The notes: generated by a model from the sequence alone, not told the origin. A DNA stretch of 44,010 bases from Candidatus Omnitrophica bacterium CG1_02_40_15 (GCA_001871815.1 MNVP01000077.1:439-44448); one strand, 5' to 3'; counted from the first letter of the stretch, positions 18,989 to 37,521 are shown. Program-made: numbers and translations.

Positions 18989-19017
18989 AGTGTAACAGGT
19001 TGAACTGCTATTGTCAA
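18989..19017 (-). promoter_or_regulatory. Sigma-70-type promoter candidate for IHF/HU gene
   Basis: Minus strand: TTGACA (19017-19012), 17-nt spacer, TACACT (18994-18989). Lies just downstream of the terminator at 19035-19070. Confidence 0.55.
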
Positions 19018-19034
19018 ATGAATTCCAACAACTC

Positions 19035-19070
19035 AAGAAAAATCTGCCCGCTAAAGAACACAGCGGGCAG
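19035..19070 (-). terminator. Rho-independent terminator after the GH57 (681 aa) gene
   Basis: Minus strand: CTGCCCGCT-gtgttcttt-AGCGGGCAG followed by ATTTTTCTT. Starts 5 nt after the TAA at 19076-19078. Confidence 0.8.
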
Positions 19071-19075
19071 AAACT

Positions 19076-21121: not shown

Positions 21122-21148
21122 ATTGCTATCTACCTTTATCGCGTTACT

Positions 21149-21257
21149 AATCGCGGAAACACGCGGAACATAACGCAGAACTACGCAGAAATTAAACTCT
21201 AATTTCCGCGTTTTTCCGCGTCTGGCCGAAAGCCAGCTTCCGCGTAGTTCCGCGATT
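21149..21257. repeat. CGCGGAA decamer-periodic long hairpin element, copy b
   Basis: Forward strand: CGCGGAA-aca-CGCGGAA (21152-21168), CGCAGAA-cta-CGCAGAA (21174-21190), TTCCGCG-ttt-TTCCGCG (21204-21220), side hairpin tctggccgaaagccag, TTCCGCG-tag-TTCCGCG (21238-21254). Outer and inner pairs are mutually complementary. Confidence 0.85.
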
Positions 21258-21259
21258 CT

Positions 21260-22690
21260 TCACAGGTTTTTATATAACTTCAGATATTGTTCTGCTGATG
21301 ATTCCCATGAATAATCGCAAGATACGCAGTTTTTAAGGAGCGTGTTCCAGAGTCTTTTATTCTTAAACACAGCCACTGCTTCTTTAATGGCGCTTAGAAA
21401 CGCCTCATTGGTAGCATCTTTAAATTTAAACCCATTCCCTTTTTTAGTAGCAGGATTGAAATTCTGAATCGTATCGTCCATGCCTCCTACGGCCCTTACT
21501 ACAGGAACTGTAGCATATTTAAGGCTATACATCTGGTTTAATCCGCACGGCTCATATCTGGAAGGCATTAAAAACATATCAGCGCCTGCTTCTATCTTAT
21601 GAGACAGCGCGTTATCAAATTTTATGCTCACGCCGACTTTGCCTTTATATTCTTTAGCCAGGCCCTGAAATATATTATTATATTTCTCATCGCCAAATCC
21701 AAGTATAACAAAATCGCTATCCTTTAAAATATCCTTCATTATATTTACAACCAGGTCTATGCCCTTTTGCTCTGCAAGCCTTGTTATCATAGCTATAATA
21801 GGCCTTTTGGCGCTATATTTTATTTCAAATGCCTTGGCCAGGTCTTTTTTGCATTCAATCTTGCCGCTAAGGTCATTTTCATCAAATTTTTTAGCTATAA
21901 ATTTATCATTAGCCGGGTTCCACACAGAATAATCCACCCCGTTTATTATTCCATAAAGATTTTTTTCTTTTACCCTTAATAACCCATCCAAACCGCATCC
22001 AAACTCAGGAGTAAGTATTTCCCTGCTATAGCCTTTACTCACAGTGCTTATAGCGTCCGAAAAAACTATACCTGATTTCATAAAACTCAATTTATCCCAG
22101 AATTCAACTCCGGATGTGGTAAATAAATCCCAGGAAATATCCAAATACGGCACTACATCTTTAACGAAAAGCCCCTGGTAAACCATGTTATGTATTGTAA
22201 AAAGAATCTTTGTCTTATTGAACATGGCGTCATTCTGATGATGGGTTTTAATATATAGAGGCACTAGGCCTGACTGCCAGTCATTACAATGCAATACATC
22301 CTGCTTGCCTATATAAGGTATGGATGCCAGTATTGCTTTTGCGTAAAAACTAAACCTGAATGCATTATCCTGATAATCTGCTTGAGGCGTGCCGTATAAA
22401 AATTCCCTGTCATAATATTCATTTTTCTCTATAAAATATACATCCACTCCATTATGCTTTAACAAAAGAAGATTAAAAAGCTCTTCTCTATTATTTATCC
22501 TTAAAGATATATTCTTTTTAAACACAGCCGGCTTAAAGCCGTTTTTCTTGACTAACTGATAATAAGGAAGAATAGCGCTCGCCTTATGGCCTTTTCTAGC
22601 GATTGCTTCAGGCAAAGCTCCCGCTACGTCTGCCAGCCCGCCTGTTTTAGCAAAAGGAAAAACCTCCGGGGAAACAAATAAAATATTCAT
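21260..22690 (-). CDS. glgA: Glycogen synthase (GT5, GlgA-type)
   Basis: 476 aa. N-terminus MNILFVSPEVFPFAKTGGLADVAGALP carries the KTGGL motif. C-terminal PSRYEPCGLNQM. Confidence 0.92.
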   Translation of the reverse strand: MNILFVSPEVFPFAKTGGLADVAGALPEAIARKGHKASAILPYYQLVKKNGFKPAVFKKNISLRINNREELFNLLLLKHNGVDVYFIEKNEYYDREFLYGTPQADYQDNAFRFSFYAKAILASIPYIGKQDVLHCNDWQSGLVPLYIKTHHQNDAMFNKTKILFTIHNMVYQGLFVKDVVPYLDISWDLFTTSGVEFWDKLSFMKSGIVFSDAISTVSKGYSREILTPEFGCGLDGLLRVKEKNLYGIINGVDYSVWNPANDKFIAKKFDENDLSGKIECKKDLAKAFEIKYSAKRPIIAMITRLAEQKGIDLVVNIMKDILKDSDFVILGFGDEKYNNIFQGLAKEYKGKVGVSIKFDNALSHKIEAGADMFLMPSRYEPCGLNQMYSLKYATVPVVRAVGGMDDTIQNFNPATKKGNGFKFKDATNEAFLSAIKEAVAVFKNKRLWNTLLKNCVSCDYSWESSAEQYLKLYKNL

Positions 22691-22708
22691 ATCTATCCTT
22701 TCATAAAT

Positions 22709-22775
22709 AGCTGTAAGTTTTAAGCTGTAAGCTATAAGTTTTTCTTACAGCTTATGGCTTATAGCTTAAAGCTGT
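22709..22775. repeat. Heptamer-periodic hairpin, AGCT type, copy b
   Basis: agctgta agtttta agctgta agctata agttttt cttac agcttat ggcttat agcttaa agctgt. Fills the spacer between the GH57 (403 aa) gene and glgA. Confidence 0.78.
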
Positions 22776-22789
22776 CTTTTTATTGAGTT

Positions 22790-24001
22790 TTAAGTTAATA
22801 TCTCGTCTCTAATCTTCCCCGCAATATACCTTGCCGCAATCACTTTTTTGTAGAGCTTTTTCTTTTCGGAATCTCTGCAGCCTGAACTGGCTACTGCAAG
22901 ATATGCGTTCAATATTGCTTCTTCCTGTAAAATAAGGCCTTTATTTATAAGATTTTCGTTCCACATCTTGCCTTTATTAGCCCACCAGAACTGGCAGCTG
23001 TGTAAAGCCATATCCAATGTCTCACGGCCTGTATTAAAAAAGGCTTCGCTTTTTTCACTATCTTTTTTATTCTGCGCCTGTTGTAATATTTCAAAACATA
23101 TATCTATATGCTCCCATTGCAATCTATGAATATTATTATGAGGCGTATTCCATAATGGATAATAATTTCCTGCCATGATTTCTTCGTTAGTGGTGCTCCA
23201 GGAAGAAGGTTTAGGAGGCTTTGTCTTTACTGAAGGAAACCTTTCCAGTAGATAACTGATATTTACCGCCTTTATATCGTCAGAATCCTTTATAATCTCA
23301 TAAAGAGCTGCCAGAAATATATTTTCCCAGCCATGTATATGATGGCCAAATGTCTCCGCGTCCATTGCTGTTACTATATAACTATCTTCTTTTCCCTTAG
23401 CAAGCTCTTTAATCCTTGATGCAAATCCCATGGCATCAATATTCTTAAAACTGACCATATTGCTGATTATATCGTCTCTGAAAAATGTCTTCATGGAGGC
23501 TGAGCCGAGTTTAAAAGTTGGCGCATAATCCATAGGCCATTTACCCTGGCATGCAATACCACTCACTATAACCCATTCATAACCCATGCCTCTTACAATA
23601 GAGGCTGTTTCATCAGAGTAACACATCTCTGGCAGAAAAAATCCTTTTGGCCTATAACTATCTTTAAAAAAATAGAGGTTTGTCTCTTTATTTAATTCTA
23701 TCTGACGCCTGGCTTCTTTTTTAGGTATCAAAGGCAGTATTGCGTGGAATTTTGCAGATTCAACAAACTCAACCTGGCCTCGCTCTCCAAGCTCTCTGAG
23801 GCCCGTTACAATATCCCCATAACCATGGATACTCAGCATTTCAGTAAGCACCCCGCACATATTTACAGTAACTCTGGATTCAGGATGCTCTTCAAATACC
23901 TTTACTAACGGCCTATAGGATTCTTCGCAAATCTTTCTAAGGACATTATGGGACTGCGTCGGAGGCTGGTAAAAATGTAGAAGCGGCGCCCAGTATATCA
24001 T
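22790..24001 (-). CDS. GH57-family glycoside hydrolase (403-aa paralogue)
   Basis: HFYQPP, GQVEFVES, FLPEMCY, MDAETFGHH and HSCQFWW correspond to GH57 regions I-V, with Glu and Asp retained. Confidence 0.8.
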   Translation of the reverse strand: MIYWAPLLHFYQPPTQSHNVLRKICEESYRPLVKVFEEHPESRVTVNMCGVLTEMLSIHGYGDIVTGLRELGERGQVEFVESAKFHAILPLIPKKEARRQIELNKETNLYFFKDSYRPKGFFLPEMCYSDETASIVRGMGYEWVIVSGIACQGKWPMDYAPTFKLGSASMKTFFRDDIISNMVSFKNIDAMGFASRIKELAKGKEDSYIVTAMDAETFGHHIHGWENIFLAALYEIIKDSDDIKAVNISYLLERFPSVKTKPPKPSSWSTTNEEIMAGNYYPLWNTPHNNIHRLQWEHIDICFEILQQAQNKKDSEKSEAFFNTGRETLDMALHSCQFWWANKGKMWNENLINKGLILQEEAILNAYLAVASSGCRDSEKKKLYKKVIAARYIAGKIRDEILT

Positions 24002-24189
24002 TTTACTCCAAGATCTTCCTTTACTAACCTTTCAGCATTAAGCCAGTCTTCCAGGTCATTGCCAGATTGACATCCTCTTTTTTCATAAATTTCGTACGCC
24101 TTTTTCTGGACAAGCTGCATAAATTCTTCGCGGCTGGCACGATTTTCATTATTATCCAGCGATAAGACTTTCTTCAGTTTCTTTATCAT
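23998..24189 (-). CDS. DUF2934-like small protein
   Basis: 63 aa. ...KKAYEIYEKRGCQSGNDLEDWLNAERLV matches the DUF2934 A-x-Y-x-RG-x(n)-DW-x-AE pattern. ATGA overlap with the downstream GH57 gene. Confidence 0.6.
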   Translation of the reverse strand: MIKKLKKVLSLDNNENRASREEFMQLVQKKAYEIYEKRGCQSGNDLEDWLNAERLVKEDLGVK

Positions 24190-24206
24190 CTTTCCTCCTT
24201 GTGTTT

Positions 24207-24235
24207 GTAGGGGGCGGTTTCAAACCGTCCCCTAC
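24207..24235. repeat. REP-like palindrome, copy 7 (contains the TAG stop of GH57-444)
   Basis: gtagggggcggttt-c-aaaccgtcccctac. The CTA at 24232-24234 is the stop codon of the upstream gene. Confidence 0.85.
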
Positions 24236-25566
24236 CCATTTATTATTTCCATCCCCCTGCGGCAGATCTCTTTTGCGTAATCTGTCCATACGCCAGCGCC
24301 CCAATAACGGAAACAGCTAGTCTCGGACAACAATAAATAAAAAAGCGCTTTTTTGTATGTAGGGGCGGCCAGTGACCGCCCCCTACTCAATTCATCATCA
24401 AATTTCTTATGAAATGCTGCGCTAAACTTGGTTATAGGGTCCATTATATCTTCGTAACCCTTTACCCAATCCTTATCATTTGTCCATGATGCCTTTTCTA
24501 GGCTGAAACCTGGGTATTTTTGTTTCACTTTTTCAATAGCCCTGTCAGCTGCGCCATGAGAATATTCCTTTAAAAATTCCCAGATCTTACTCTGAGAAAC
24601 AGGTTCTACAGGCATAAATGATTTTTCGTCCAAGCCAGCTTGCTTTACTAACTTAAGATACTCTGTTCCATTCATGCCGACTGTGCCATCACAGCCTGTT
24701 TCTCGAAAAGCCTTCTTATACGCTTCTGGAAATTCATTCATCATTACTCCGCCGTTTTCCCCGTCTCCTATTTGAGCTACAAAACTCGGGATGTCCAGCC
24801 CGCAGTATTTCTCATGGCCTAAAGTCTTGGCTTCGTAATATGGCTGCATCTGGCCAATGAGTTTATTATCAGACCCTTGAGTCTTTATAATAACTGTTAT
24901 CTCAGCCTTTTCTCCCAGAGAATTTTTAGCGACTAATTTATGCGGGAAATGCGGCCTTCTTATAGAGCTCCCGTCCATGTTTTCTATTGTGTGCTCCTGT
25001 ACCATCAGCCACCTGTACCCGCGCTCTTTCAAAACCTTTACATACTCAAAACACACATCAGGATGTATGGGGAGATGCATCTCGGGGCTAGAAAACCCTT
25101 TAACATTTTTAAGGGCTTTTTGGCCAAATATTGACGCAAAATAATCCTGCCATTCTTTTATATGAAGTTTTATATCTGGAACAGGTGTAGAACTAACTAC
25201 AGAATGCGACCACATTGTCCCGAGCCATTCCACATATCCAGAATATTTTTTATCACAGGTAACGAGCTTGAGATTATCCAAAACCCTTTCTTCGCCCATA
25301 TCCTTAAGGCCCCAGAGAAGATTCCCGGAATAATCCAGCATGATCCTTGGATTTTTACCTTCGCCTGAAAGTTCTCTTACGAAATCAGCTATCCTTGAAT
25401 AACAATTCAAAAATACAGGCGCATTGTGATTGTCTCCGACATTCTGATGCTCCATCATATACTGCAAATTAGAAATCAGCTTCGCTGTCCTAATATCAGA
25501 GCCGCCTGCTGGAATTATTGGCTGATGCATATGAAGCGCTATACCAAAACATGACTTTATTTTCAT
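24232..25566 (-). CDS. GH57-like glycoside hydrolase (444-aa divergent paralogue)
   Basis: HMHQP (region I), SSPEMH (candidate nucleophile Glu), GDGENGG (region IV-like), SCFRYWG (region V-like). More divergent than the other three paralogues. Confidence 0.7.
   Translation of the reverse strand: MKIKSCFGIALHMHQPIIPAGGSDIRTAKLISNLQYMMEHQNVGDNHNAPVFLNCYSRIADFVRELSGEGKNPRIMLDYSGNLLWGLKDMGEERVLDNLKLVTCDKKYSGYVEWLGTMWSHSVVSSTPVPDIKLHIKEWQDYFASIFGQKALKNVKGFSSPEMHLPIHPDVCFEYVKVLKERGYRWLMVQEHTIENMDGSSIRRPHFPHKLVAKNSLGEKAEITVIIKTQGSDNKLIGQMQPYYEAKTLGHEKYCGLDIPSFVAQIGDGENGGVMMNEFPEAYKKAFRETGCDGTVGMNGTEYLKLVKQAGLDEKSFMPVEPVSQSKIWEFLKEYSHGAADRAIEKVKQKYPGFSLEKASWTNDKDWVKGYEDIMDPITKFSAAFHKKFDDELSRGRSLAAPTYKKALFYLLLSETSCFRYWGAGVWTDYAKEICRRGMEIING
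24359..24386. repeat. REP-like palindrome, copy 8 (in frame inside GH57-444)
   Basis: gtaggggcggccagtgaccgccccctac. Translated as RGRSLAAPT. Confidence 0.8.
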
Positions 25567-25579
25567 TTTAGTTCACTTT

Positions 25580-25710
25580 CTTCTCGACGCTGCTCTTATG
25601 GCATACTCTCGTGTCCGCCCGAAGAATATTGCAGATGACTTCTTATATCTCCTATCTTTAATATTGTTCGAGCAGACAACTCGACTATACACATAAGCTC
25701 AGTCGAGAAC
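25580..25710. repeat. TCGAG-core dispersed repeat, locus D (overlaps 3' end of the GH57 branching-enzyme gene)
   Basis: cttctcgacgctgctcttatggcatactctcgtgtccgcccgaagaatatt...aatattgttcgagcagacaactcgactatacacataagctcagtcgagaac. The last 8 codons (SSRLSLCV) and the TAG of the 25685-27304 gene lie inside it. Confidence 0.8.
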
Positions 25711-27304
25711 TATAATATTTAGCGCAATCCATATCAGAAAAAATATTATCCCTTGATTCAACCTCTTTAAGCCATTCTTTATCAATAGAACCGTTCAGCA
25801 TATCCTTGTAAATATGCGTAAATCTATTTATATGAAGCTTCACCCTTTTATTAGCATATTCTACCATTGTGCCTGTTTTCATTATAAATGGCCAATCGCT
25901 TGCCTGCGCAAGGAGAAGCTCTCTCGCAGCCTGATTCAATGCAAGCGCCGCCAGGCCAAATTTGTCTTTCTCTATGCAATTAGAAAACTTTTCAGCCAAT
26001 TCTTTCATCCTTTCGCCTGCGGCATGCAGATGCCTGTAGATCCAGTCATTGCTTCCTTCCAGCCAGACCTCATTATAACCTTTATAACCCCATGTAGATG
26101 TTGAGGGGACAGACATCTGGTTAACAGGATATTCCCTTAGATAATCTGACGGTGTAGCAAGCTTTACTGTTTTTTGGTCATACGCAATTTTACGTATCAA
26201 AAAATCAATCCACATCGGGCCTTCAAACCACCAGTGCCCGAACAATTCCGCGTCATAAGGAGAAATAATCATAGGCTTTCTATCCATATGATACGCAACA
26301 TGCTCTATCTGTTTTTCGCGGTTAAACATAAAGTTCCCTGCGTGCGTAGCCGCTTTTTCCTTTGCCCATTCAGGCACATACGGCTCCTTATGATCGGTAT
26401 CCCCTGTTATCCTCCAGTATTTAAGCCCTGTATTTATCCTGAATCCGATTGGATGAATATACGGTTTTATATACTCATACTCCAATTCATGGCCTATATC
26501 CTTATAATATTCCCTATAATCAGGGTCTCCGGGATAACCTTCTTTTGAGCTCCAGACCTGCTTGGAAGATTCCCAGTCTCTTCCGAATGCAGCAACTCCT
26601 GTTGGGCAGTATAAAGGCGCGTATACGCTATACTTTGGCGCTGGATCTGCGTTTACAATTCCATGCGAATCTACAAAGAAATATTTAATCCCAGAGTCTG
26701 CTAAAAGATTGTCAATGCCTGGGGCATATCCGCATTCAGGAAGCCAGAACCCAACAGGATCCCTGCCGAATGTTTTTCTGTAATGGCCCACGCCAATTTT
26801 TACCTGGGCATCCGCATCAGTTGGATTTACGCTTAATATAGGAAGGAACCCGTGAGTGGCGCATGAAGCAAGTATCTCAACGCATCCAATATCCTGGAAT
26901 CTTTTAAATGCGGATACCAGGTCTTTTTTGCATCTATCTACAAATATCTCTTTTGCCTCCACGAACTTCCTGTAATACATCAGGGCTAAACCGTGAAATT
27001 TAGGGTCATAGCCTGTGCGCTGCACCTCTTTGTCAGCAAGTTCTATTAATTTATCAATATGCCTTATATATCTATTTTGAAGGAGTTCGTCCTGAAGCAT
27101 AGACGCCAAGGTAGGCGTCAGAGACATTGTTATGCGGAAATCCACATGGTCTTCGATTAATTTTTCAAAAACCTGTATAAAAGGTATATAAGTTTCTGTT
27201 ATGGCTTCATAGAGCCAGTTCTCCTCAAGAAAATCCTCCTCTTCAGGATGCCTGACAAATGGAAGATGCGCATGTAACACTAAACAAAGATAACCTTTAT
27301 GCAT
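25685..27304 (-). CDS. GH57-type 1,4-alpha-glucan branching enzyme
   Basis: 539 aa. LVLHAHLPFVRHPE, WLPECGYAPG (Glu), YDAELFGHWWFEG (Asp) and AQASDWPF. Size and motifs resemble Thermus/Thermococcus-type GH57 branching enzymes. Confidence 0.87.
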   Translation of the reverse strand: MHKGYLCLVLHAHLPFVRHPEEEDFLEENWLYEAITETYIPFIQVFEKLIEDHVDFRITMSLTPTLASMLQDELLQNRYIRHIDKLIELADKEVQRTGYDPKFHGLALMYYRKFVEAKEIFVDRCKKDLVSAFKRFQDIGCVEILASCATHGFLPILSVNPTDADAQVKIGVGHYRKTFGRDPVGFWLPECGYAPGIDNLLADSGIKYFFVDSHGIVNADPAPKYSVYAPLYCPTGVAAFGRDWESSKQVWSSKEGYPGDPDYREYYKDIGHELEYEYIKPYIHPIGFRINTGLKYWRITGDTDHKEPYVPEWAKEKAATHAGNFMFNREKQIEHVAYHMDRKPMIISPYDAELFGHWWFEGPMWIDFLIRKIAYDQKTVKLATPSDYLREYPVNQMSVPSTSTWGYKGYNEVWLEGSNDWIYRHLHAAGERMKELAEKFSNCIEKDKFGLAALALNQAARELLLAQASDWPFIMKTGTMVEYANKRVKLHINRFTHIYKDMLNGSIDKEWLKEVESRDNIFSDMDCAKYYSSRLSLCV

Positions 27305-27332
27305 AATAAGTATCCTAACAAAGTCCTATCCT

Positions 27333-27456
27333 AATATTCTTCGAGCGATCATGATACTATATCATGAGAGCACAGTCGAGAAGCCTACCCTGAGCTTGTC
27401 GAAAGGTTCTCGACTCTGCTCTCATATTTGGTTCCCATGTCCGCTCGAACAATATT
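27333..27456. repeat. TCGAG-core dispersed repeat, locus E (two units in inverted orientation)
   Basis: aatattcttcgagcgatcatgatactatatcatgagagcacagtcgagaag - 22 nt - gttctcgactctgctctcatatttggttcccatgtccgctcgaacaatatt. The whole element is a 124-nt imperfect palindrome. Confidence 0.85.
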
Positions 27457-27463
27457 GTATGGG

Positions 27464-28708
27464 TTATTTTGGAACTGTATTGCGCTCGACTTTTGTTGTT
27501 ATTCTCTTTGTTTCTACTTTATCATTCGAAGTTGCAGTAAAAGGCAGATCTATTTTCCCATCAGGAAGCGCAAGCCTCATGCTGAAAGTTCCGTCCGGCC
27601 TGAGATCTACTTTTTTATCCCCAAGCCTCACCTCTGCATCAGGCTCTGTGCGGCCATAAACAATAAGTTCTGCCCCTATTTCAAAAAAGAATTTGCGTTT
27701 TTTATCCGGCTGGATAAATTCGCTTGCGCCGCCTTGAAGATTTTCGCTTCCACCTAGATATGTAAATTCAGAGGCGCCAATCATAACTTTCCTGCCAAAT
27801 TTAGCTCCTTCGAGCCTCTTAAAATAAAGCAGGCCTTTCCATTCGCTTTCTGACATCCTGGAATACAAATATTTATATATGCGTTTTCTGGAAATACGCG
27901 AAAATAACCTATTTCTTAATAAAGGAGAAAATTTACTGTAATACGCTCTTAAATCTGCCTGGCTAAGATAAATCTTTCTTCTTCTGGATACAGTAGGGAA
28001 CGGCCGCGGCCGTTCCCTACTAAACCTGCCTGCTGTATCATATTGAACAGCGTTTTCGCCTCTATTGAATGTAGGGGACGGCCGCGACCGTCCCCTACCT
28101 GCTTTTTCAATAGCAATCTCATCGCTAATATCCATCCATATCTCTTCAAATCTGTTTGACGAACTGGAGCGGGGGGTATGCACAAAGTTAGACCTGGCCA
28201 TTGGAAAAAATCTTCCGGAAGTATGGACTATGCCTATCTCTCCGCAATACGACACATTGTCATTCCAAAGGCTTATATACCAATTATTGGAATAACGGCC
28301 TACTTCTATATCAAACCAATGATTGGCATTAAAACCATTAAAATCTTTATATGTTATATCATACATGCGCACGATAAATTTGGCGCCGTCCAGGTTGCCG
28401 CCCAATTGTTTCTTCACATTTTCTATTGAACTCTCGGCAATTTCCCAGTAAGCGTATATCCAGAAAGGATCCTTTGGTATCAACGTAATCCTTGTTATAG
28501 TATCGTAAGAAGGAAGTTCGTATTCATTTATCGTTATATTTGGCGCGCTTTTATATTCTTTTATTGCGCAGGATGGCTCTATCACGGCAACAGAAAGCTT
28601 TCTACGGACTGCTTTTCTTTTTACAGCCTTTACAATAGCCTCTCTTCCATCTTTATAAATGCGCTCTATGGAATTTCTTTTTTTAATTTTTGGTTTTTTA
28701 ACGGCCAT
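27464..28708 (-). CDS. DUF4912-like protein of unknown function
   Basis: 414 aa. The block ITLIPKDPFWIYAYWEI...IVRMYDIT resembles DUF4912. A basic, probably disordered middle carries two REP-like insertions. C-terminal beta-rich region. Confidence 0.65.
   Translation of the reverse strand: MAVKKPKIKKRNSIERIYKDGREAIVKAVKRKAVRRKLSVAVIEPSCAIKEYKSAPNITINEYELPSYDTITRITLIPKDPFWIYAYWEIAESSIENVKKQLGGNLDGAKFIVRMYDITYKDFNGFNANHWFDIEVGRYSNNWYISLWNDNVSYCGEIGIVHTSGRFFPMARSNFVHTPRSSSSNRFEEIWMDISDEIAIEKAGRGRSRPSPTFNRGENAVQYDTAGRFSRERPRPFPTVSRRRKIYLSQADLRAYYSKFSPLLRNRLFSRISRKRIYKYLYSRMSESEWKGLLYFKRLEGAKFGRKVMIGASEFTYLGGSENLQGGASEFIQPDKKRKFFFEIGAELIVYGRTEPDAEVRLGDKKVDLRPDGTFSMRLALPDGKIDLPFTATSNDKVETKRITTKVERNTVPK
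27993..28020. repeat. REP-like palindrome, copy 9 (in frame inside DUF4912 gene)
   Basis: gtagggaacggccgcggccgttccctac, perfect. Translated as RERPRPFPT. Confidence 0.85.
28071..28098. repeat. REP-like palindrome, copy 10 (in frame inside DUF4912 gene)
   Basis: gtaggggacggccgcgaccgtcccctac. Translated as RGRSRPSPT. Confidence 0.85.
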
Positions 28709-29858
28709 AAATGTCCAGTACCTGGTCAGCTACAACATCCCATGAAAAAGCGGTTTCAACTGCGATCCTGCCGTTAGCGCCCATCCATCTGGCGTGGTCA
28801 AAATCTGAAAATGCAGCGCCTATGCCCCATGCTATTGATTCAGGATTTGGATAAACCTTTAAACCTGTTATGTCATGCCATATTATTTCTCCTGGCCCGC
28901 CGTTTGAAGTAGCTATCACAGGTTTTCCAGCGCTCCATGCTTCTAATAAAACTATCCCAAAAGGTTCGTTTCTCGAAGGTATACACACAACGTCTGTTGC
29001 CTTGTAAAGATCAGAAAGCTTCCATCCATTATTAAAGCCTATAAACCTTGTAGCGTGATGAACACCAATCTCTTTTGCCCTATCCTCCACGCCCCAGCGC
29101 ATCTCTCCGTCTCCCACAAAAACAAACTTTGCGTTATTGTAATATTTAAGTATGTGCGGGATAGCCTCTATTAAAAGGTCCGGGCCTTTTTGATAAACAA
29201 TCCTGCCGACAAAAAGCGCCATTGGGTCCATTGGCCCTATTCCATAATAACGCCGGACTGCTCCAGCGTCTATCCACCCGTCAAAATTTCTGTAATTGAC
29301 TCCATTATATACTACGTCCGCTTTCCAATCAGGCACATTATACATCCACTGTATTTCCCCTTTAAGGGCCCGGGATACAGCTATTACATGGTCAGCGCAG
29401 TATGTGCCATGCCTTTCATGGTCCCTTATCCTGGCGGAATTGCCATTATGAAAATTATTCCCGCACCTGCCATATTCAGTTGAGTGCATGGTAAGAACAG
29501 CCTTGCTTGGCCTGGCCTGTTTTATCCAAACCATTGCGTTTGAGGTCAGCCAGTCATGGCTATGAATCACGTCAAAAGGGCCCGTGACGCTTTCTGTCTG
29601 GAAAAATGCATCCACAAAAGAGCGGCACATATTATTTATTTCTTCTACAAAATCCGGGCTCTGGTGAAAATGGCACCTATGATAATGCACACCGTCAATG
29701 CGTTCATACCATGCCTGATTGGGGTTACCAGCTCGCGTAAAAACATGGACCTCATTGCCCTTGCGCTCAAGGCCGCATGCAAGTTCTGTAACATGCACGC
29801 CTACCCCGCCCACGCAAATAGAATGCATGGATTCCCACGAAAATATGGCTATCCGCAT
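28698..29858 (-). CDS. GT4-family glycosyltransferase, glycogen-synthase-like
   Basis: 386 aa. MRIAIFSWESMHSICVGGVGVHVTEL... N-terminus. C-terminal PSRNEPFGIVLLEAWSAGKPV (E-x7-E context). 11-nt overlap with the DUF4912 gene. Confidence 0.8.
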   Translation of the reverse strand: MRIAIFSWESMHSICVGGVGVHVTELACGLERKGNEVHVFTRAGNPNQAWYERIDGVHYHRCHFHQSPDFVEEINNMCRSFVDAFFQTESVTGPFDVIHSHDWLTSNAMVWIKQARPSKAVLTMHSTEYGRCGNNFHNGNSARIRDHERHGTYCADHVIAVSRALKGEIQWMYNVPDWKADVVYNGVNYRNFDGWIDAGAVRRYYGIGPMDPMALFVGRIVYQKGPDLLIEAIPHILKYYNNAKFVFVGDGEMRWGVEDRAKEIGVHHATRFIGFNNGWKLSDLYKATDVVCIPSRNEPFGIVLLEAWSAGKPVIATSNGGPGEIIWHDITGLKVYPNPESIAWGIGAAFSDFDHARWMGANGRIAVETAFSWDVVADQVLDIYGR

Positions 29859-29865
29859 ATTTTTT

Positions 29866-29933
29866 CAGCTTTAAGCTATAAGCTTTAAGCTATAAGCTTT
29901 TTCTTACAGCTTACAGCTTAAAACTTACAGCTG
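29866..29933. repeat. Heptamer-periodic hairpin, AGCT type, copy c
   Basis: c agcttta agctata agcttta agctata agctttt tcttac agcttac agcttaa aacttac agctg. Fills the CBM48-GT4 spacer. Confidence 0.8.
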
Positions 29934-29943
29934 AATTTGTGTT

Positions 29944-30219
29944 TTATAATTCTATTACTGAATTTTCTGAGCCGAAAGTGTTTACTGTGAAAAGATTATT
30001 TAAAGGGTCTCTCTGCCATTGGCCGTCAATCAAATATTTATACTCATAACGTCCAGGATTAAGAGTCAAATCTCTTGCCCATACTCCATCTTTAGATTTC
30101 TTAAGACTGCTGCTGGACGCATCCCATGAATTGAAATCTCCTGCCAGGCGCACATCATTTGCAGTTGGCGCGCTTATCTTAAAAACCACCCTTTTTTTTG
30201 AACATTTCTTAATAGCCAT
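29944..30219 (-). CDS. Stand-alone CBM48 / AMPK-beta-like glycogen-binding domain protein
   Basis: 91 aa. VVFKISAPTANDVRLAGDFNSWD...KDGVWARDLTLNPGRYEYKYLIDGQWQRDPLN is the CBM48 pattern. SD AGGAGGGGG upstream. Confidence 0.78.
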   Translation of the reverse strand: MAIKKCSKKRVVFKISAPTANDVRLAGDFNSWDASSSSLKKSKDGVWARDLTLNPGRYEYKYLIDGQWQRDPLNNLFTVNTFGSENSVIEL

Positions 30220-30350: not shown

Positions 30351-31001
30351 TTATATAGTAGTTATACCTTCTTTGAGCGCGTATCTAATGAGGTCTGCCT
30401 GGCGGTGTATTCCAAGTTTCTGCATTATATTATTTCTGTGGGCAAGCGCGGTCTTTAAAGAAATCTTAAGCTGTGCCGCAACTTCCTTATTTATATAGCC
30501 TTCTGCTATAAGCTGGAGAACTTCTCTTTCTCTCCCAGTAAGACTGACTATCTTTTTTTCTCCTATCTTCTGGCCTCTTGAATCAATGTAATCCTGTATT
30601 ACAAATGTGGATATTCTGGGACTAAGAAAATATTCATTCTTGTAAACTGCTCGTATGGCCTGAATGATCTCATCAGCTGCTGAATCTTTTAACACATACC
30701 CTTTTATCCCCAAGCTTAAAGCCCTTTCTATAAATGCCCTGTTATCATGCATGCTTAGTATAATCACCTTATTCCTTGGGTTAATCTGCATTATCTGGCT
30801 GGATGCCTCAAGGCCATTTAATATAGGCATGGTTATATCAATTATAAATATATCCGCTGAATCATTCTTTGCGATATCCACAACCTCTTTACCATTTGAC
30901 GCCTCTTTGATAACCTTTATATCTTGTTCCTGAGATATCACAGCGCTTAAACCCTGCCTTACTATCGCATGGTCATCCGCTAAAACCACATCTATAGCCA
31001 T
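30351..31001 (-). CDS. Response regulator, NarL/FixJ family (REC + LuxR-type HTH)
   Basis: 216 aa. Acidic pocket VVLADDHAIV and phospho-acceptor IFIIDITMP. C-terminal LTGREREVLQLIAEGYINKEVAAQLKISLKTALAHRNNIMQKLG. Confidence 0.92.
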   Translation of the reverse strand: MAIDVVLADDHAIVRQGLSAVISQEQDIKVIKEASNGKEVVDIAKNDSADIFIIDITMPILNGLEASSQIMQINPRNKVIILSMHDNRAFIERALSLGIKGYVLKDSAADEIIQAIRAVYKNEYFLSPRISTFVIQDYIDSRGQKIGEKKIVSLTGREREVLQLIAEGYINKEVAAQLKISLKTALAHRNNIMQKLGIHRQADLIRYALKEGITTI

Positions 31002-31019: not shown

Positions 31020-31047
31020 GTAGGGAACGGTCGCGACCGTTCCCTAC
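31020..31047. repeat. REP-like palindrome, copy 11 (contains the TAG stop of the histidine kinase)
   Basis: gtagggaacggtcgcgaccgttccctac, perfect. The CTA at 31044-31046 is the kinase stop. Differs from copy 9 by a compensated C/G to T/A pair. Confidence 0.85.
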
Positions 31048-31721
31048 GCTTCTTCAATAATTTGGAAAGTTGCATTTATCTTTGTCCCGTTTTTAGATTT
31101 AGACTGCAGTAAAAACTTTCCATTCAATAAATCCACCCGCTCTCTCATCCCGCGTAAACCAAGCTTATCCGCATTTACCTCTTTGAAAAATGCCTCTGCG
31201 TCAAACCCTATTCCATCGTCTTCTATTGTAAAACTTATTTCTCCTTCTTTAAGCAACAAATCTATCTTTACATTTTTTGCCTTTGCGTGCTTTACAATAT
31301 TATTAAATGCCTCTTGTATGACCCTGTACAGGGTAATCGCCACCTCTTCTTTTATATGAATATCGCCTATATTTTCCTTGAATTTTATATTTAAAGGATA
31401 CGACTTTGTGTAATGCGAGAAAAGTTCGCGCAAGACTGACGGAAGGCCAAGCATGCCTAACTCTGCAGGCCTCAGGTCTATAAAAAGCGCTCTGATTTTA
31501 TCTGCCGTATTAGCTAAGATTATCTTTGCGTCTTTTATTACGTGGAGGGCTCTATCGAGATTATGTTTCGTTATCTCTTTTTCAATTATGCTCAATGCTG
31601 AGCCAAGAGATACTGAAAACTGGCCTATCTCGTCATGAAGATCCCGGGATATCCTGTGCCTTTCCTCTTCCTGGATAGCTAGTATCTTCTTTGAAAATTC
31701 CCTTGCCTCAGCATCTTCCAT
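31044..31721 (-). CDS. Sensor-less histidine kinase (HisKA_3 + HATPase_c only)
   Basis: 225 aa. H-box EEERHRISRDLHDEIGQ begins at about residue 18. N-box EAFNNIVKHA. DDGIGF and GLRGMRERV. No TM or sensor domain. Confidence 0.87.
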   Translation of the reverse strand: MEDAEAREFSKKILAIQEEERHRISRDLHDEIGQFSVSLGSALSIIEKEITKHNLDRALHVIKDAKIILANTADKIRALFIDLRPAELGMLGLPSVLRELFSHYTKSYPLNIKFKENIGDIHIKEEVAITLYRVIQEAFNNIVKHAKAKNVKIDLLLKEGEISFTIEDDGIGFDAEAFFKEVNADKLGLRGMRERVDLLNGKFLLQSKSKNGTKINATFQIIEEA

Positions 31722-31730
31722 AAAATTTAT

Positions 31731-31904
31731 TTAACAAGGTCCAGCAGGATTAGGGCATCCGCCAGCAGTGCATGCTGGGCACAGATAATCAGGGGACTGT
31801 GCATATGCTGGAACATCGCCTTTAAACTTATCATTTAAAACTTCGCTTTTAACAATTGGCTTCACATAACGCTTCTTGGCTTGTTTTTCTATCTTCCTTG
31901 TCAT
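31731..31904 (-). CDS. Candidate RiPP precursor peptide (57 aa, Cys/Pro/Gly-rich C-terminus); absent from ORF track
   Basis: Minus strand: AGGAGG-cgcaaa-ATG... encodes MTRKIEKQAKKRYVKPIVKSEVLNDKFKGDVPAYAQSPDYLCPACTAGGCPNPAGPC, TAA at 31731-31733. Directly downstream of the radical SAM/SPASM gene. Confidence 0.6.
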   Translation of the reverse strand: MTRKIEKQAKKRYVKPIVKSEVLNDKFKGDVPAYAQSPDYLCPACTAGGCPNPAGPC

Positions 31905-32971
31905 TTTGCGCCTCCTTTCTTGTTTTGAAAATCAAATCAGATTTATTTTCATTTATATATTTATCTGTAAAATATGATGATTCGCACATAGCTTTTACTG
32001 GTTTAAGAGCCCTGTTTTCAAGGAGCTGGGCAGCCGGGCATATTGAACATACTGCTATCAGCTTACATTTATTACACTTATAAATATCCTTGAGTTTAAT
32101 TTCCCGCCATTGTTTTAACACGCTTGAATTATGCCACAAATCTTTAAAAGAAGCCTTAAGTAAACTGCCTGCGCTTACCTGAGATAAGATACAAGGCATT
32201 AGCTCGCCATACGGGTTTATTCCAAAAGTATTATGCGCGGCGCTGCAAGCGCTTAGTTCAAGCATGTCACCTTTGCCTCTGGCAAATTTATTATTTTTCA
32301 TTTTCGTAAACGCGCCATCTTTGTTCATAAACGCCATATAATTAGAAAAATCTTTCCCGGAGATACTCATATGTCTATTTTTTTTACTTCCATCTCTCAT
32401 AGGAATTATTATATGGCCAAAAAAACAATTCGTTACATCAAGCCCTTCTGCGAGTTTTTGTATCTCTCTATAAAAATTGAAAGTATCTTTAAAAAGGGTT
32501 ACCTTAAGAATAACCGGGATCTTATAACTGCGTAAAAATCGTATAGCGTTAATCAAGGCGTTAAAAGACCCTTTTACGCCTGTAATTTTATCATGCAGAT
32601 CAGGGGTGGGGCCGTAAATACTCATATCTACGCTTCTTATATTATACCTTTTCAGCCTTTTTGCCGTTTGTGAATACTGATATGAGAAATTTTTCACGAT
32701 GGCTAGCCTCAAAAATATCAAATATATCCCGGCGCATAAACATTTCTCCGCCTGTAAAAGATATAACAAAAGTTCCGTTATGGGCGATATCTTTCAAAAT
32801 ATTTTTTATTTGTCCGGCATTAAGAGGCTGGGAACAATGATCAGCATTAAAACAGTGGCGGCATCGCAAATTGCACTTATATGTCAGCTCAAATATGCAT
32901 CTTATCGGGAAATTCTGCTTGTCGCATTTTTCCATCAAACTTCTATATATAGTGTCCGGCGCGTTTCTCAT
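31849..32971 (-). pseudogene. Radical SAM / SPASM-domain peptide maturase, split by a +1/-1 frameshift
   Basis: Two overlapping ORFs (32642-32971 and 31849-32769). The N-terminal part has CNLRCRHC (CxxxCxxC), FTGGE and VFTNG. The C-terminal part has VDMSIYG..., C-x12-G-x4-C (CSAAHNTFGINPYGELMPC) and C-x2-C-x5-C-x2-C (CNKCKLIAVCSIC). The frames switch at the T5 run 32658-32662. Confidence 0.8.
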
Positions 32972-32972
32972 A

Positions 32973-33245
32973 TTATTTTATGAATAACAGTTTGGCATTG
33001 CTCATTTCTTTTATAAAAGATTCCATATCCCTTTTCACTATTGAGCGTTCTATCTTATAATCTCTATAAACAGATGATAAAATACTCTCTATTGAAACTC
33101 ATCTGGCGCAGCTCTTCCAAATCAGCGCAGCGGTTTCATTTAAATGGTGAAACCTGTCATCAAAACTAGAATAGATAAAACATTCCCCATCTAAACTCCT
33201 GAATGGGACAGATGAATTCCGCTTGATAAGTGTTTTATGCTCCAT
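32973..33245 (-). pseudogene. PqqD-like RiPP recognition element with in-frame TGA; absent from ORF track
   Basis: MEHKTLIKRNSSVPFRSLDGECFIYSSFDDRFHHLNETAALIWKSCAR*VSIESILSSVYRDYKIERSIVKRDMESFIKEMSNAKLLFIK. The ATG (33243-33245) overlaps the upstream stop. The TAA (32973-32975) is 1 nt from the rSAM ATG. TGA at 33099-33101. Confidence 0.65.
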
Positions 33246-34071
33246 GCGTGCATATCCTGTCTAAATACAATGTTTTATTTTTTGAAAACCCCAGGATAAA
33301 ACTTGGAATTGTCTTAGCAATCCCGCAACAGTTCTTGAATATTTCGTTTCTATTTGGGTGAGGATATCCTATGCCTAATCCATGCGCATTCTGTATTAAT
33401 TTTTTCAAAGCCATTTGCATGGGCGCTGGATTGATTGTATTGTTGAAACGATTTTTTCTAAGAGAGAATATATTTTCAGCCCGGACCTTCACGTTGCAAT
33501 TTAATCCTTGATAAAAAGGCGGCCGTAAAGGCGCGCTGTAAAGGCAGTAATTGGCCCCGCCATCCTGCCTTAATAAAGCCAAATCATCATGTAAAATTGT
33601 ATAAGCCGGCGGAAGGACCTTCACTACTGTTGATTTTCCATCGCCAGATGAGCCTATGAATAATATGCCCTTATCTTTGAACATAACGCTTGAGGCATGT
33701 ATAGCAATGCCATTATAGAACGGCAAAATAAATTTATAAATTTCTCTTAGCGAAAAATGAATAAAATTAACCATCTTTTTACCGCCGCTATTTAAAAAAA
33801 TACAGCCTGTTTTAACCCTCATGTCAAAAAAACATTCCCCTTTCAATCCTACATTTGAATAATATAACGAAGTTGCGTTGCTACAGTGCGCGCTTTTATC
33901 CCGCGTTAATTTCTTTTTTGTCTGGCTAATATTAAGGTATATAACGTCTTTACGTAAATTAGAATCGCAAAATCCTTCAAAATGCGTTTTCAGTCTTTGA
34001 AATATGCCATATTTTTCGCAGGTTATAACGCAGGATATCTCCGCTATATTCAAAGAAAATTTAAGCTTCAT
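33235..34071 (-). CDS. HPr-kinase-C-terminal-like P-loop protein (HprK-related kinase)
   Basis: 278 aa. KGILFIGSSGDGKSTVVKVLPPAYTILHDDLALL matches the HprK C-domain pattern G-x-SG-x-GKS(T/E)...DD. No N-terminal HprK domain. Confidence 0.6.
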   Translation of the reverse strand: MKLKFSLNIAEISCVITCEKYGIFQRLKTHFEGFCDSNLRKDVIYLNISQTKKKLTRDKSAHCSNATSLYYSNVGLKGECFFDMRVKTGCIFLNSGGKKMVNFIHFSLREIYKFILPFYNGIAIHASSVMFKDKGILFIGSSGDGKSTVVKVLPPAYTILHDDLALLRQDGGANYCLYSAPLRPPFYQGLNCNVKVRAENIFSLRKNRFNNTINPAPMQMALKKLIQNAHGLGIGYPHPNRNEIFKNCCGIAKTIPSFILGFSKNKTLYLDRICTHGA

Positions 34072-35374: not shown

Positions 35375-36379
35375 TTACTTTGTTGCGCACGCTTCTCTTA
35401 AGCACTTACCAGTTATTTCAGGCGATGTAGGATTTATATAGAGGCCTGAACCCCATTCAAAACCAGCTATATTTGTCAATTTAGGCATTATCTCAAGATG
35501 CCAGTGAAATTCTTCATAAACCCCGTCTCTAATAGGCGCAGTGTGAATTATAAAATTATACGCCGGGTCATTTAGCCTTGATTTCAACCTCGCAAGGATT
35601 TCTTTTAATGCGCCTGCCATATCATAAATCGCGGAATCATCTATTGATTTAAATTCAGGACTATGAGATTTTGGCAATAACCATACCTCGAATGGAAAGC
35701 GAGACACAAAAGGGCAAAATGCGATAAAATATTTATTTTCAAATACTATCCTCTCCTTTTCCTGCTGCTCCTGAGCCAGCATATCGCAGAAAACGCATCT
35801 CTCCCTGTATTTAAAATAATTCTGGGCGCCTTTTAGCTCTTCTTTAACCCTCTTTGGCACAATCGGTAGTGCCACAAGCTGAGTATGCGAATGTTCAAGC
35901 GACGCGCCCGCAGATTCCCCGTGATTTTTAAAAAGTAAAATATACCTGAATCTTGTGTCATTTTCCAGATCTATGGTCCTGGATTTATACTTTAATATTA
36001 CATTCCTTATCTCATCCTGCGTCAGGTCAGATAAGTTTTTATAATGATCTGGATTTTCAATTATTACCTCGTGCGCGCCAATACCATTTGACATGTCATA
36101 CATACCTATGCCGCGCTTGTCCAATTCGCCCTCTATCTTTAATGCAGGAAATTTATTAGAAACAACTCTGACTGTCCAGCCTGAGGTGTCGGGCTTTGTC
36201 TTAGAGTCTCTAATAACCTCTATCTCAGGAGGCGTCATCTTTTCGTTTCCCGGACAAAAAGGACATGTTCCGCCTTTTTTAGTCTGCGGCTTTATATCAA
36301 ATTCATCGCATCTTTTTGGATGCGAGACAGCTATTTCCACCCATCTTCCTGTTACTGGATCGCGTCTTAATTGAGACAT
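35375..36379 (-). CDS. GalT-like HIT-family nucleotidyltransferase (hexose-1-P uridylyltransferase / NDP-glucose phosphorylase type), catalytic motif intact
   Basis: MSQLRRDPVTGRWVEI..., zinc knuckle CPFCPGNE, GAHEVIIE, active-site HSHTQ (H-x-H-x-Q) at 35879-35893. ATG 36379 chosen. Confidence 0.85.
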   Translation of the reverse strand: MSQLRRDPVTGRWVEIAVSHPKRCDEFDIKPQTKKGGTCPFCPGNEKMTPPEIEVIRDSKTKPDTSGWTVRVVSNKFPALKIEGELDKRGIGMYDMSNGIGAHEVIIENPDHYKNLSDLTQDEIRNVILKYKSRTIDLENDTRFRYILLFKNHGESAGASLEHSHTQLVALPIVPKRVKEELKGAQNYFKYRERCVFCDMLAQEQQEKERIVFENKYFIAFCPFVSRFPFEVWLLPKSHSPEFKSIDDSAIYDMAGALKEILARLKSRLNDPAYNFIIHTAPIRDGVYEEFHWHLEIMPKLTNIAGFEWGSGLYINPTSPEITGKCLREACATK

Positions 36380-36408
36380 GTTATAATCCTTTGAAAAAAA
36401 TATTTGTC

Positions 36409-36475
36409 GGTGAAAAGTTAAAGGTTGAAGGTTTAGAACAAAAAATCTTATACCTTTCACTTTAAACCTTTCACC
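36409..36475. repeat. Heptamer-periodic hairpin, AGGT/ACCT type, copy b
   Basis: ggtgaaa agttaaa ggttgaa ggtttag aacaaaaaatcttat acctttc actttaa acctttc acc. Lies between the two GalT-like genes. Confidence 0.72.
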
Positions 36476-36492
36476 AAATTATATACTAATCT

Positions 36493-37521
36493 TTATATGC
36501 TGACCTCTTGTAAATATTTCGTCGCTTCTTCCGGAGGAGTAGGATTTATATAAAATCCTGAACCCCACTCAAAACCAGCCACCTGAGTAACTCTAGGCAT
36601 AACCTCTATATGCCAGTGATAATCTTCTTCTATTGTATGCCAGTAACCTGGCCTCTTTGTCCGCCTGAAAGGGGCTGTATGCAGCATATAATTATACGGC
36701 GGATCATTCAATACCCTTGAAAGCTTGGCAAATACTGTCTTTAAAACATTTGCCAGATCTTTTATTTCATCACCCTGTATATTCATAAAATCTGTCCTGT
36801 GGATTTTAGGCATTATCCATATCTCAAAAGGAAACCTTGAGGCAAAAGGCGCGATTGCCACAATGGTTTTTGTCTCCATTATGATCCTTGCGCCTGTTTC
36901 TATTTCCTGGCGTATAATGTCGCAGAAAATACACCTTTCTTTATATTCGAAATAAAACATGGAACCCCTGAGTTCCTCTTTGACTCTTGTAGGCGTAACA
37001 GGCGTTGCGATAAGCTGAGACCTCATGTGTTTTGTTTTGCGGCTGCCGCCTGCCTTTAACCCATGATTCTTAAATAAAAGGCAATATTTAAAACGAATGT
37101 CTTTTTCGAGTTCGCTGATGCGGTAGATAGAAGCATTAATTACATCTTGTATTTCAAGCTCTGATAACTGATATATATCAGTAAGGTGATTAGGGGACTC
37201 TACCAGCACTTCATGGGCGCCTATATTGTTCATAACATCATACATCCCGACTCCGCGCCTCTCAAGCTCCCCTTCTATCTTGAATTTCGGAGCTATGCTG
37301 GGAACAACCCTCACGCTCCAACCTGGAGTATCTTTTTTTGTGCCTGGTTTTCTTATTGCAAATATTTCCGTAGGCGTCTTCTTCTCATGGCCTTCGCAAA
37401 AAGGGCATTCCATCTCAGGCTCATCCGCATGCTTGATATTAAAATCGTTCGGCCTTTTAGCCCTCTCAGTAGATATTATAACCCATCTTCCTATTACAGG
37501 ATCTCGTCTTAATTCTGGCAT
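36493..37521 (-). CDS. GalT-like HIT-family paralogue with the nucleophilic His replaced (H-M-R-S-Q)
   Basis: MPELRRDPVIGRWVII..., CPFCEGHE, GAHEVLVE. The active-site position reads KHMRSQ (codons 37015-37029; Arg167 = AGG at 37021-23) where the paralogue has HSHTQ. Confidence 0.8.
   Translation of the reverse strand: MPELRRDPVIGRWVIISTERAKRPNDFNIKHADEPEMECPFCEGHEKKTPTEIFAIRKPGTKKDTPGWSVRVVPSIAPKFKIEGELERRGVGMYDVMNNIGAHEVLVESPNHLTDIYQLSELEIQDVINASIYRISELEKDIRFKYCLLFKNHGLKAGGSRKTKHMRSQLIATPVTPTRVKEELRGSMFYFEYKERCIFCDIIRQEIETGARIIMETKTIVAIAPFASRFPFEIWIMPKIHRTDFMNIQGDEIKDLANVLKTVFAKLSRVLNDPPYNYMLHTAPFRRTKRPGYWHTIEEDYHWHIEVMPRVTQVAGFEWGSGFYINPTPPEEATKYLQEVSI

Follow-up and report, generated by a model that had tools for sequence, protein, structure and literature searches.

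The 44,010-nucleotide stretch of Candidatus Omnitrophica bacterium CG1_02_40_15 analyzed here (the window) holds on its minus strand a small open reading frame (ORF) that is wedged between a radical SAM (rSAM)/SPASM gene and a histidine kinase gene, which raises the questions of whether this ORF is a gene at all and, if it is, what its peptide is made for. A preliminary description had proposed an rSAM-linked precursor peptide of an unrecognized family, and the comparative evidence, namely homologues behind rSAM genes and the lack of any curated match, supports that proposal. As a whole, the locus is best explained as the precursor of a four-gene RiPP-type cassette whose pathway has recently died here, a reading to which we assign a probability of about 0.72.

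Read directly from the window, the reverse complement of 31731-31920 is AGAAAGGAGGcgcaaaATG...TGTTAA, exactly as given earlier, and the ORF at 31904..31731 translates to the 57-residue peptide MTRKIEKQAKKRYVKPIVKSEVLNDKFKGDVPAYAQSPDYLCPACTAGGCPNPAGPC. Also verified were the length of the ORF, the AGGAGG sequence 6 nt from the ATG, the four Cys, four Pro and three Gly among the final 16 residues, and the 56-nt overlap with the rSAM ORF, which ends at 31849. The gap between the peptide stop and the histidine kinase ATG (31721) is 9 nt, not 10 nt. Two labels need qualification. The peptide was called unannotated, and it indeed carries no name and has no NCBI entry, but its exact sequence has been called by the JGI/IMG, Logan and ENA pipelines; and what was called the rSAM ORF does adjoin and overlap the peptide, but represents no more than the 3' portion of a gene that a 23-nt deletion has disrupted. 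The layout of the peptide gene is as follows.

31731..31904, minus strand: putative precursor-peptide gene, 57 aa plus stop, with homologues at the equivalent position and the only frame open in 7/7 loci
31797-31904, minus strand: leader, about residues 1-36
31734-31796, minus strand: core, about residues 37-57, SPDYLCPACTAGGCPNPAGPC
31911..31916, minus strand: Shine-Dalgarno sequence AGGAGG, with a 6-nt spacer to the ATG at 31904

A scan for promoters and terminators returned sites no more common than in shuffled sequence, and a search against Rfam gave no match at the peptide ORF, the only match in the window being a single tRNA elsewhere.

The ORF is a real gene under coding constraint. A six-frame check of seven loci found the peptide frame free of stops in every one (which bears out the expectation of an open frame in orthologous loci), with at least one stop in the other five frames in every locus, and a GGAGG-type ribosome-binding site (RBS) lies upstream of the peptide in 7/7 tested loci. 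Insertions and deletions between the peptide genes of relatives amount to net multiples of three, so that the frame is kept. At conserved Cys, Ala, Gly and Pro residues, the codons vary at synonymous sites alone: the conserved Gly-Pro-Cys is written GGA CCT TGT, GGC CCC TGC or GGC CCC TGT among relatives, and Cys-x-Ala-Cys behaves likewise. The pN/pS of the gene takes moderate values of 0.32-0.66, and together with the synonymous-only changes at conserved codons this is the coding constraint that the preliminary description had asked of relatives. With the lack of an Rfam family, these observations establish the gene. Its position after an rSAM/SPASM gene is kept wherever the context is known, with an overlap of 1 to 65 nt; the ScmC-like proteins of the cassette lineages share only 39-50% identity with one another, and three divergent lineages keep the peptide overlapping the rSAM 3' end. 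Conservation downstream of homologous rSAM/SPASM genes, where it was suggested that one should look, was found in L001-L004, L006, L007/L088, L087 and L098, as well as for P0012, and these homologues uphold the picture of a small gene whose product has a basic leader and a C-terminal core that contains Cys.

There is very little room left for the reading that the ORF is not functional and owes its conservation to the overlapping rSAM 3' end, or to some regulatory or RNA element ahead of the kinase gene. It would draw on the start of the ORF, which overlaps the rSAM reading frame by 44-65 nt, and on leader DNA that is almost invariant in the window clade, synonymous sites included. Most of the ORF, however, lies beyond the rSAM stop. 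Its frame survives indels, its conserved Cys, Gly and Pro codons change synonymously only, and no other frame is open in all seven loci; every copy carries an RBS, Rfam has no match, and the protein motif is kept even where the DNA of a lineage is unrelated and no kinase gene follows.

The leader DNA (31797-31904) is about 95% identical to that of L001, L002 and L006, and the flanking genes are 82-86% identical. This near-invariance, which extends to synonymous sites in DNA only part of which overlaps the rSAM 3' end, could reflect an extra constraint at the level of RNA or of translational coupling.

A first search with the window peptide as query gave three called homologues. The family was extended through the contexts of ScmC-like proteins, a genome scan, a metagenome scan, and an HMMER search over 1.84 billion representative proteins, for a total of nine distinct peptides (the window peptide plus eight), most of them from one clade. 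A genome scan anchored on the rSAM gene returned mostly unrelated rSAM/SPASM genes of at most 33% identity, with L007 as the only orthologue. The peptides found beside that of the window are listed below.

L001 peptide, ends ...SPDYRCGACAGGSGRGPC
L002 peptide, 53 aa, ends ...SPQYNCGACAGHSGVGPC
L006 peptide, ends ...SPDYLCGACTGGSGAGPC
L004 peptide, MGKHNDFNNKKSAKKPYTKPVLKTESLDKFGNNNIMAEPYRCLRCSAAYGNRVC, missed by the gene-calling pipeline
L087 peptide, ends ...TASYNCHKCSAAYGNHPC
L098 peptide, ends ...SYNCRKCSAAYGNQPC
L007/L088 peptide, MMEKRSRVKNNKPPKKHYISPAIQSESLFDKEQFTKAAAYGSCNRCATGPAQIC, from Omnitrophota UBA10183
P0012 peptide, MKKTAKKSAKKRYIKPKLKSELLNKFGEENFLLGASYQCHKCNPASGNQPC

Alignment of the nine peptides reveals as invariant positions K-K-x-Y-x-x-P in the leader, followed by E-x-L, and three Cys. 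Summed up as a consensus, the leader reads KK-x-Y-x-x-P-x-[ILV]-x-[ST]-E-x-L and the core Y-x-C-x2-C-x3-[S/Y]-G-x3-C-COOH, in which the Tyr stands 2-3 residues before the first Cys and a Cys is always C-terminal. The Cys spacing is C-x2-C-x8-C in seven of the nine, with x7 in L007 and x11 in the window. The window core is thus the outlier of the family (C-x2-C-x11-C): it has one Cys more, and three inserted residues take the place of [S/Y]-G. The spacing C-x2-C-x4-C-x6-C, which the preliminary description had put forward for a conservation check, does not hold across relatives: only three Cys are conserved, and the third Cys of the window and the insertion are unique to this strain.

The non-Cys positions of the core vary even between near-identical strains. 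Over 3.6 kb, L087 and L098 differ at three sites, one of which is an indel in the ScmC-like gene and the other two of which are amino-acid replacements in the core (H>R and H>Q); over 1757 nt, the sole difference between the window and L003 lies in codon 2 of the peptide. A short peptide next to the enzymes, with a conserved leader and a variable core, was found across all nine members. RiPP precursors are classically recognized by just such a constant leader joined to a variable core, and the peptide shows this hallmark. Among the 1.84 billion representatives the peptide profile finds only the cluster of the window clade, P0012, and a peptide with leader-like repeats, P0015. The peptides find no counterpart among the curated models of NCBIfam and Pfam, the SCIFF, sactipeptide and ranthipeptide precursor models and the SynChlorMet (SCM) models included, in keeping with the earlier remark that the core belongs to no known family.

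P0015, from a 32.6-kb ENA contig, is a 54-residue peptide made of two repeats of EYYKPIIKSEVLQxNNQVRSIT. The repeat contains a nearly identical leader motif (YxKPIxKSEVL) and no Cys, and P0015 may be a different type of precursor that uses the same recognition motif.

The genes that travel with the peptide define a conserved cassette in which it is accompanied by an HprK-like P-loop protein (Pfam ScmC), a PqqD-type chaperone and an rSAM/SPASM enzyme, with Pfam ScmC, PqqD, and Radical_SAM plus SPASM matches in the cassette loci of relatives. On the minus strand of the window the order is GAPDH, ScmC-like gene (34071..33235), PqqD (33245..32973), rSAM/SPASM (32971..31849) and peptide, which are followed by the histidine kinase, a LuxR-type regulator, a CBM48 protein, a glycosyltransferase, a DUF4912 protein and a GH57 enzyme. 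The features next to the peptide gene are as follows.

33235..34071, minus strand: ScmC-family HprK-like P-loop protein, 278 aa, intact, Pfam PF27840 (precomputed)
32973..33245, minus strand: PqqD-family (RRE) pseudogene, with an in-frame TGA at 33101-33099 in place of TGG (Trp49)
31849..32971, minus strand: rSAM/SPASM maturase pseudogene, with a 23-nt deletion relative to the intact 365-aa L002 orthologue
31044..31721, minus strand: sensor-less HisKA_3/HATPase histidine kinase, 225 aa, a neighbor outside the conserved cassette
30351..31001, minus strand: LuxR/NarL-type response regulator, 216 aa, a neighbor

Taxonomically labeled loci of the cassette come, so far, from Omnitrophota only, and the ScmC-like subfamily forms only 7 clusters among 5.8 billion. 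The minimal cassette loci contain no conserved protease or transporter. In L087 (6575-7360) a second PqqD-family gene follows the peptide and is itself followed by a gene for a signal-peptidase-I-like (S26) protein, which scores 48 bits against TIGR02228, just under the cut-off of 51.85; the window clade has no such gene, and the protein is a candidate leader peptidase. L098 has a second PqqD gene too, inside which the contig ends. The ScmC-like gene of L098 is truncated by a single-base indel at about 1583 (229 aa called) in a sequence otherwise 99.9% identical to L087, which may represent further decay of the cassette or a sequencing error. Elsewhere in the window, two tandem paralogous galactose-1-phosphate uridylyltransferase-like genes of 361 and 342 aa lie at 35375-37521 on the minus strand (the orthologous locus L005 has the corresponding GalP_UDP_transf/DUF4921 Pfam matches), upstream of GAPDH and of a large cluster with GH57, glycogen-synthase-like, DUF4912 and CBM48 genes at about 19000-30200.

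The histidine kinase consists of DHp (HisKA_3) and ATPase domains only and has neither a sensor nor a transmembrane region, and one could imagine the peptide as its signaling partner, supplying input to the kinase and its regulator, for instance through Cys that sense redox state or metals. The conserved 9-nt junction between peptide and kinase in L001, L003, L006 and L094 would fit such a role, as would the bare DHp and catalytic domains of the kinase. This adjacency, however, is confined to the window clade: no kinase or regulator accompanies the peptide in L004, L007/L088 or L087/L098, where the peptide still sits behind the rSAM gene, and the linkage that is conserved is that to ScmC, PqqD and rSAM. 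We therefore regard a signaling role as improbable, and have rejected the kinase and response regulator as components of the conserved cassette, from which they are absent in three of four lineages.

The state of the cassette in this strain was determined by alignment to the intact orthologous locus L002, which encodes an ScmC of 278 aa, a PqqD of 90 aa, an rSAM enzyme of 365 aa and a peptide of 53 aa. The 23-nt deletion splits the rSAM gene into one ORF that retains the CX3CX2C part (32971..32642) and another that retains the SPASM part (32769..31849). Its junction lies at about 32670/32669, after the FTNG motif, where the codons for G-TLITKE are lost and the frame is shifted. The second lesion is the premature TGA of the PqqD gene, which in L002, L005 and L006 encodes an intact protein of 90 aa. 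All other large ORFs of the window look intact. An assembly artefact can be rejected for both lesions because they recur in assemblies of other sequencing runs: the same deletion junction is present in the independent assemblies L093 (ERZ27293412), L095 (SRR6240784) and L096, and the TGA is present in L092, L093 and L095. An alternative genetic code was likewise rejected as an explanation of the TGA, since 9 of 37 large ORFs stop at TGA and Trp codons elsewhere are TGG. As the lesions are independently confirmed, and as L089, a 99.1% identical contig of another sample, keeps the TGG, we infer that the inactivation is recent and specific to this strain. With a nonsense codon in PqqD, a frameshift in rSAM and an atypical core, the window peptide is most likely an unprocessed relic, and cross-linking by the neighboring rSAM enzyme is unlikely in this organism, where both the rSAM and the PqqD genes are inactivated. 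The locus nevertheless makes a clean natural case of a cassette in recent decay: it has acquired two independent lesions, and a 99.1% identical relative retains at least the PqqD codon.

The intact orthologues allow the enzymes to be characterized. In the rSAM proteins, C33, C37 and C40 (the CX3CX2C motif) are invariant, as are the seven SPASM Cys, which form two auxiliary-cluster sets: C250, C268, C307, C310, C316, C319 and C337. Both Pfam Radical_SAM and SPASM match the protein, as expected of generic rSAM/SPASM RiPP enzymes (the window copy being disrupted). Its best NCBIfam scores are AhbD 122-145, WgkB 109-116, ScmE 110, MftC 107-129 and NirJ2 107-132 bits, which leaves them far short of the respective cut-offs of 265-650 bits, and the nearest solved structures are SkfB, CteB, SuiB and PqqE. 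An RRE is represented by the PqqD genes (PF05402) of L002, L004, L005, L006 and L098, with the premature TGA setting the window copy apart. The best NCBIfam matches of PqqD are chaperones of lasso peptides and WgkC chaperones, below their cut-offs (the top match, the lasso model NF033536, reaches 43.7 bits against a cut-off of 80).

The ScmC-like protein carries the motif H125-x15-G-x2-G-x-GKS-x14-DD, and HASSVMFKDKGILFIGSSGDGKSTVVKVLPPAYTILHDD starts at residue 125 of the window protein. In the form H-x15-G-x2-G-x-GKS-x14-[DE]D the motif is also present in P0005-P0008, L087 and P0010, and L007 has H-D-E. A motif of this kind, H-x15-G-x2-G-x-GKS-x(about 15)-DD, is catalytic in the lasso peptide kinase BsfK, where mutagenesis shows that it is needed, and is common to other lasso peptide kinases; BsfK acts faster on its precursor in the presence of the PqqD-like RRE BsfB1, and the lasso leader motif is YxxPxL (PMC10368454). 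The HprK_rel_A/B and hpr-ser models match the ScmC-like protein weakly. Among PDB sequences, a profile search with it matched ABC transporters through Walker-A alone, apart from a weak match to PEPCK, and an AlphaFold2 model from a 5-sequence alignment was unusable (pLDDT 41).

These features suggest how an intact cassette would work. By analogy with lasso RREs, which bind YxxPxL, PqqD would bind the YxxPx[ILV] leader and present the core to the rSAM/SPASM enzyme, which would act on the Cys-bearing core by radical chemistry, with thioether cross-links to Cys as the most probable outcome; the main alternative would be chemistry of the MftC kind at the C-terminal Cys that all members share, or a reaction in which the invariant Tyr takes part. 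Because the top scores of the rSAM protein include AhbD and NirJ2, which do not act on peptides, and MftC, the thioether chemistry is only one option among several. As the ScmC-like protein keeps the full catalytic motif of the HPr-kinase-like lasso kinases, it may phosphorylate a hydroxyl of the precursor, for which the [S/Y]-G at C2+4 and the invariant Tyr are candidates.

A different fate for the product can be envisaged from the same RiPP-type precursor. The peptide could give rise to an intracellular redox cofactor or metal ligand, in the manner of mycofactocin or PQQ, rather than to an exported product, with the rSAM/SPASM enzyme acting at the C-terminal Cys (for example by oxidative decarboxylation), at the invariant Tyr, or at both. 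The mft and pqq systems have the same architecture of PqqD-like chaperone, rSAM/SPASM enzyme and short peptide, the minimal cassette has neither a conserved transporter nor a conserved protease, and the unvarying C-terminal Cys and the Tyr 2-3 residues before the first Cys would offer suitable sites. MftC and the oxidative decarboxylase AhbD are also among the best rSAM matches, at 107-145 bits, although all scores fall far below the curated cut-offs. The hypervariable non-Cys core, on the other hand, is easier to reconcile with a product of ecological or antagonistic function, the cassette has no linked partner oxidoreductases, and the wider group of ScmC-like cassettes has ABC transporters and S24/S26 peptidases. 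On balance a cofactor seems unlikely, although it deserves more credence than a signaling role, and we prefer the precursor of a modified RiPP-type product.

That wider group comprises distant ScmC-like cassettes (L008, L009, L078, L086 and L091) with one or two rSAM genes, S24/S26 peptidases and ABC transporters. L008, L009, L078 and L086 were considered as curated SCM members and rejected, as they are not curated members either. Small uncalled ORFs lie after rSAM genes at L008:1898-2050 and 5067-5261, at L078:5163-5312 and at about L086:6466-6675. They have [YW]-x-x-P-x-[ILV] leaders and Cys-bearing cores, one of which ends ...CQNPTPNC and so has a C-terminal Cys. The cassettes that host them, from a Slackia heliotrinireducens MAG and others, combine two rSAM/SPASM genes, PqqD, an S24/S26 peptidase and an ABC transporter, and these ORFs may be the precursors of SynChlorMet-like cassettes in general.

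It is tempting to take the argument further, and to see in the family a new RiPP class in which an HPr-kinase-like protein and an rSAM/SPASM enzyme, served by one shared PqqD, process an obligatorily Cys-ended Y-x-C-x2-C-x8-C core, and which is the precursor type of all ScmC/SynChlorMet-like cassettes. We put this forward tentatively, as the less probable outcome, and its extension to the SynChlorMet-like cassettes draws on the similar Cys-bearing small ORFs after the rSAM genes of Slackia and other MAGs. If true, it would imply undescribed chemistry, such as a phosphorylated, thioether-bridged or C-terminally decarboxylated product. The peptide would in any case give a concrete substrate to uncharacterized rSAM cassettes in which an HPr-kinase-like protein and a PqqD chaperone occur together, here from the Omnitrophota, a largely uncultured phylum. 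The interest lies less in the window locus than in the family with intact members on related contigs, as the intact orthologous cassettes (of the L002, L006, L004, L007 and L087 types) span about 2.3 kb and are small enough for synthesis and expression.

Comparison with named systems places the cassette near several of them. Sactipeptide (AlbA, SkfB, StsB) and ranthipeptide (CteB, PapB, SCIFF) systems share with it an rSAM/SPASM enzyme with seven auxiliary-cluster Cys that adjoins a short peptide with a Cys-bearing C-terminal core. The scores against PapB (67.7 bits, cut-off 340), AlbA (97, cut-off 850) and SkfB (70, cut-off 300) are nonetheless low, the RRE is here a separate PqqD protein instead of an N-terminal domain, and an HprK-like protein is present. 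Mycofactocin (MftA/MftB/MftC) and PQQ (PqqA/PqqD/PqqE) likewise rely on a short peptide, a discrete PqqD-like chaperone and an rSAM/SPASM enzyme, and by analogy the chemistry here may also center on a conserved Tyr and/or the C-terminal residue with no need of a transporter. They differ in that MftC reaches 107-129 bits against a cut-off of 265 and PqqE 83-90 against 381, in the C-terminus, which is Cys here and Gly-Val-Tyr in MftA, and in the absence here of Glu-x3-Tyr and of the other mft and pqq genes.

Lasso systems whose precursor kinases are HPr-kinase-like (BsfK, ThcoK, PadeK) and whose PqqD-like RRE (B1) is a discrete protein share the kinase motif H...GxxGxGKS...DD; the Y-x-x-P-x-[ILV] of 9/9 leaders resembles YxxPxL, and lasso chaperones are the best matches of PqqD. 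Unlike these systems, the window and the cassette loci lack the B2 transglutaminase-like peptidase and the C cyclase (asparagine-synthetase-like), an rSAM/SPASM enzyme is present, and the core does not follow the Gly1/Asp-Glu ring logic.

The nearest named relative is SCM (ScmC TIGR04249, ScmD TIGR04248, ScmE TIGR04250, ScmF TIGR04251; Pfam PF27840), which has in common with the cassette an HprK-like ScmC-family protein, a PqqD-family protein and one or more rSAM/SPASM enzymes. ScmC is the best NCBIfam match of the P-loop protein, and ScmE is in the top three of the rSAM enzyme. In contrast to SCM, there is one rSAM gene here, not two, and most members have neither a peptidase nor an ABC transporter. 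The scores also diverge: TIGR04249 gives 36.6 bits for the window and 26.8 for L004 (cut-off 125), although the broader PF27840 matches; ScmE gives 110 and ScmF 84-88 bits against cut-offs of 400 each; and TIGR04248 gives 22.5 bits for the PqqD of L004 and no match for that of L002 (cut-off 100). Our literature search found nothing on SynChlorMet/ScmC, TIGR04249-51, PF27840, or the combination of HPr kinase, PqqD and radical SAM, and only general BGC surveys for Omnitrophota and RiPPs; to our knowledge, the precursor of the SCM cassette has never been identified. Judged by these scores and gene contents, the cassette is outside curated SynChlorMet, ranthipeptide, sactipeptide, mycofactocin and PQQ systems, and lasso B2 and C are absent. 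Since the peptide has no match among the curated models and all curated cut-offs lie far above the scores of the enzymes, we infer that the peptide is a new precursor family within the rSAM/SPASM plus RRE class of RiPP-type systems.
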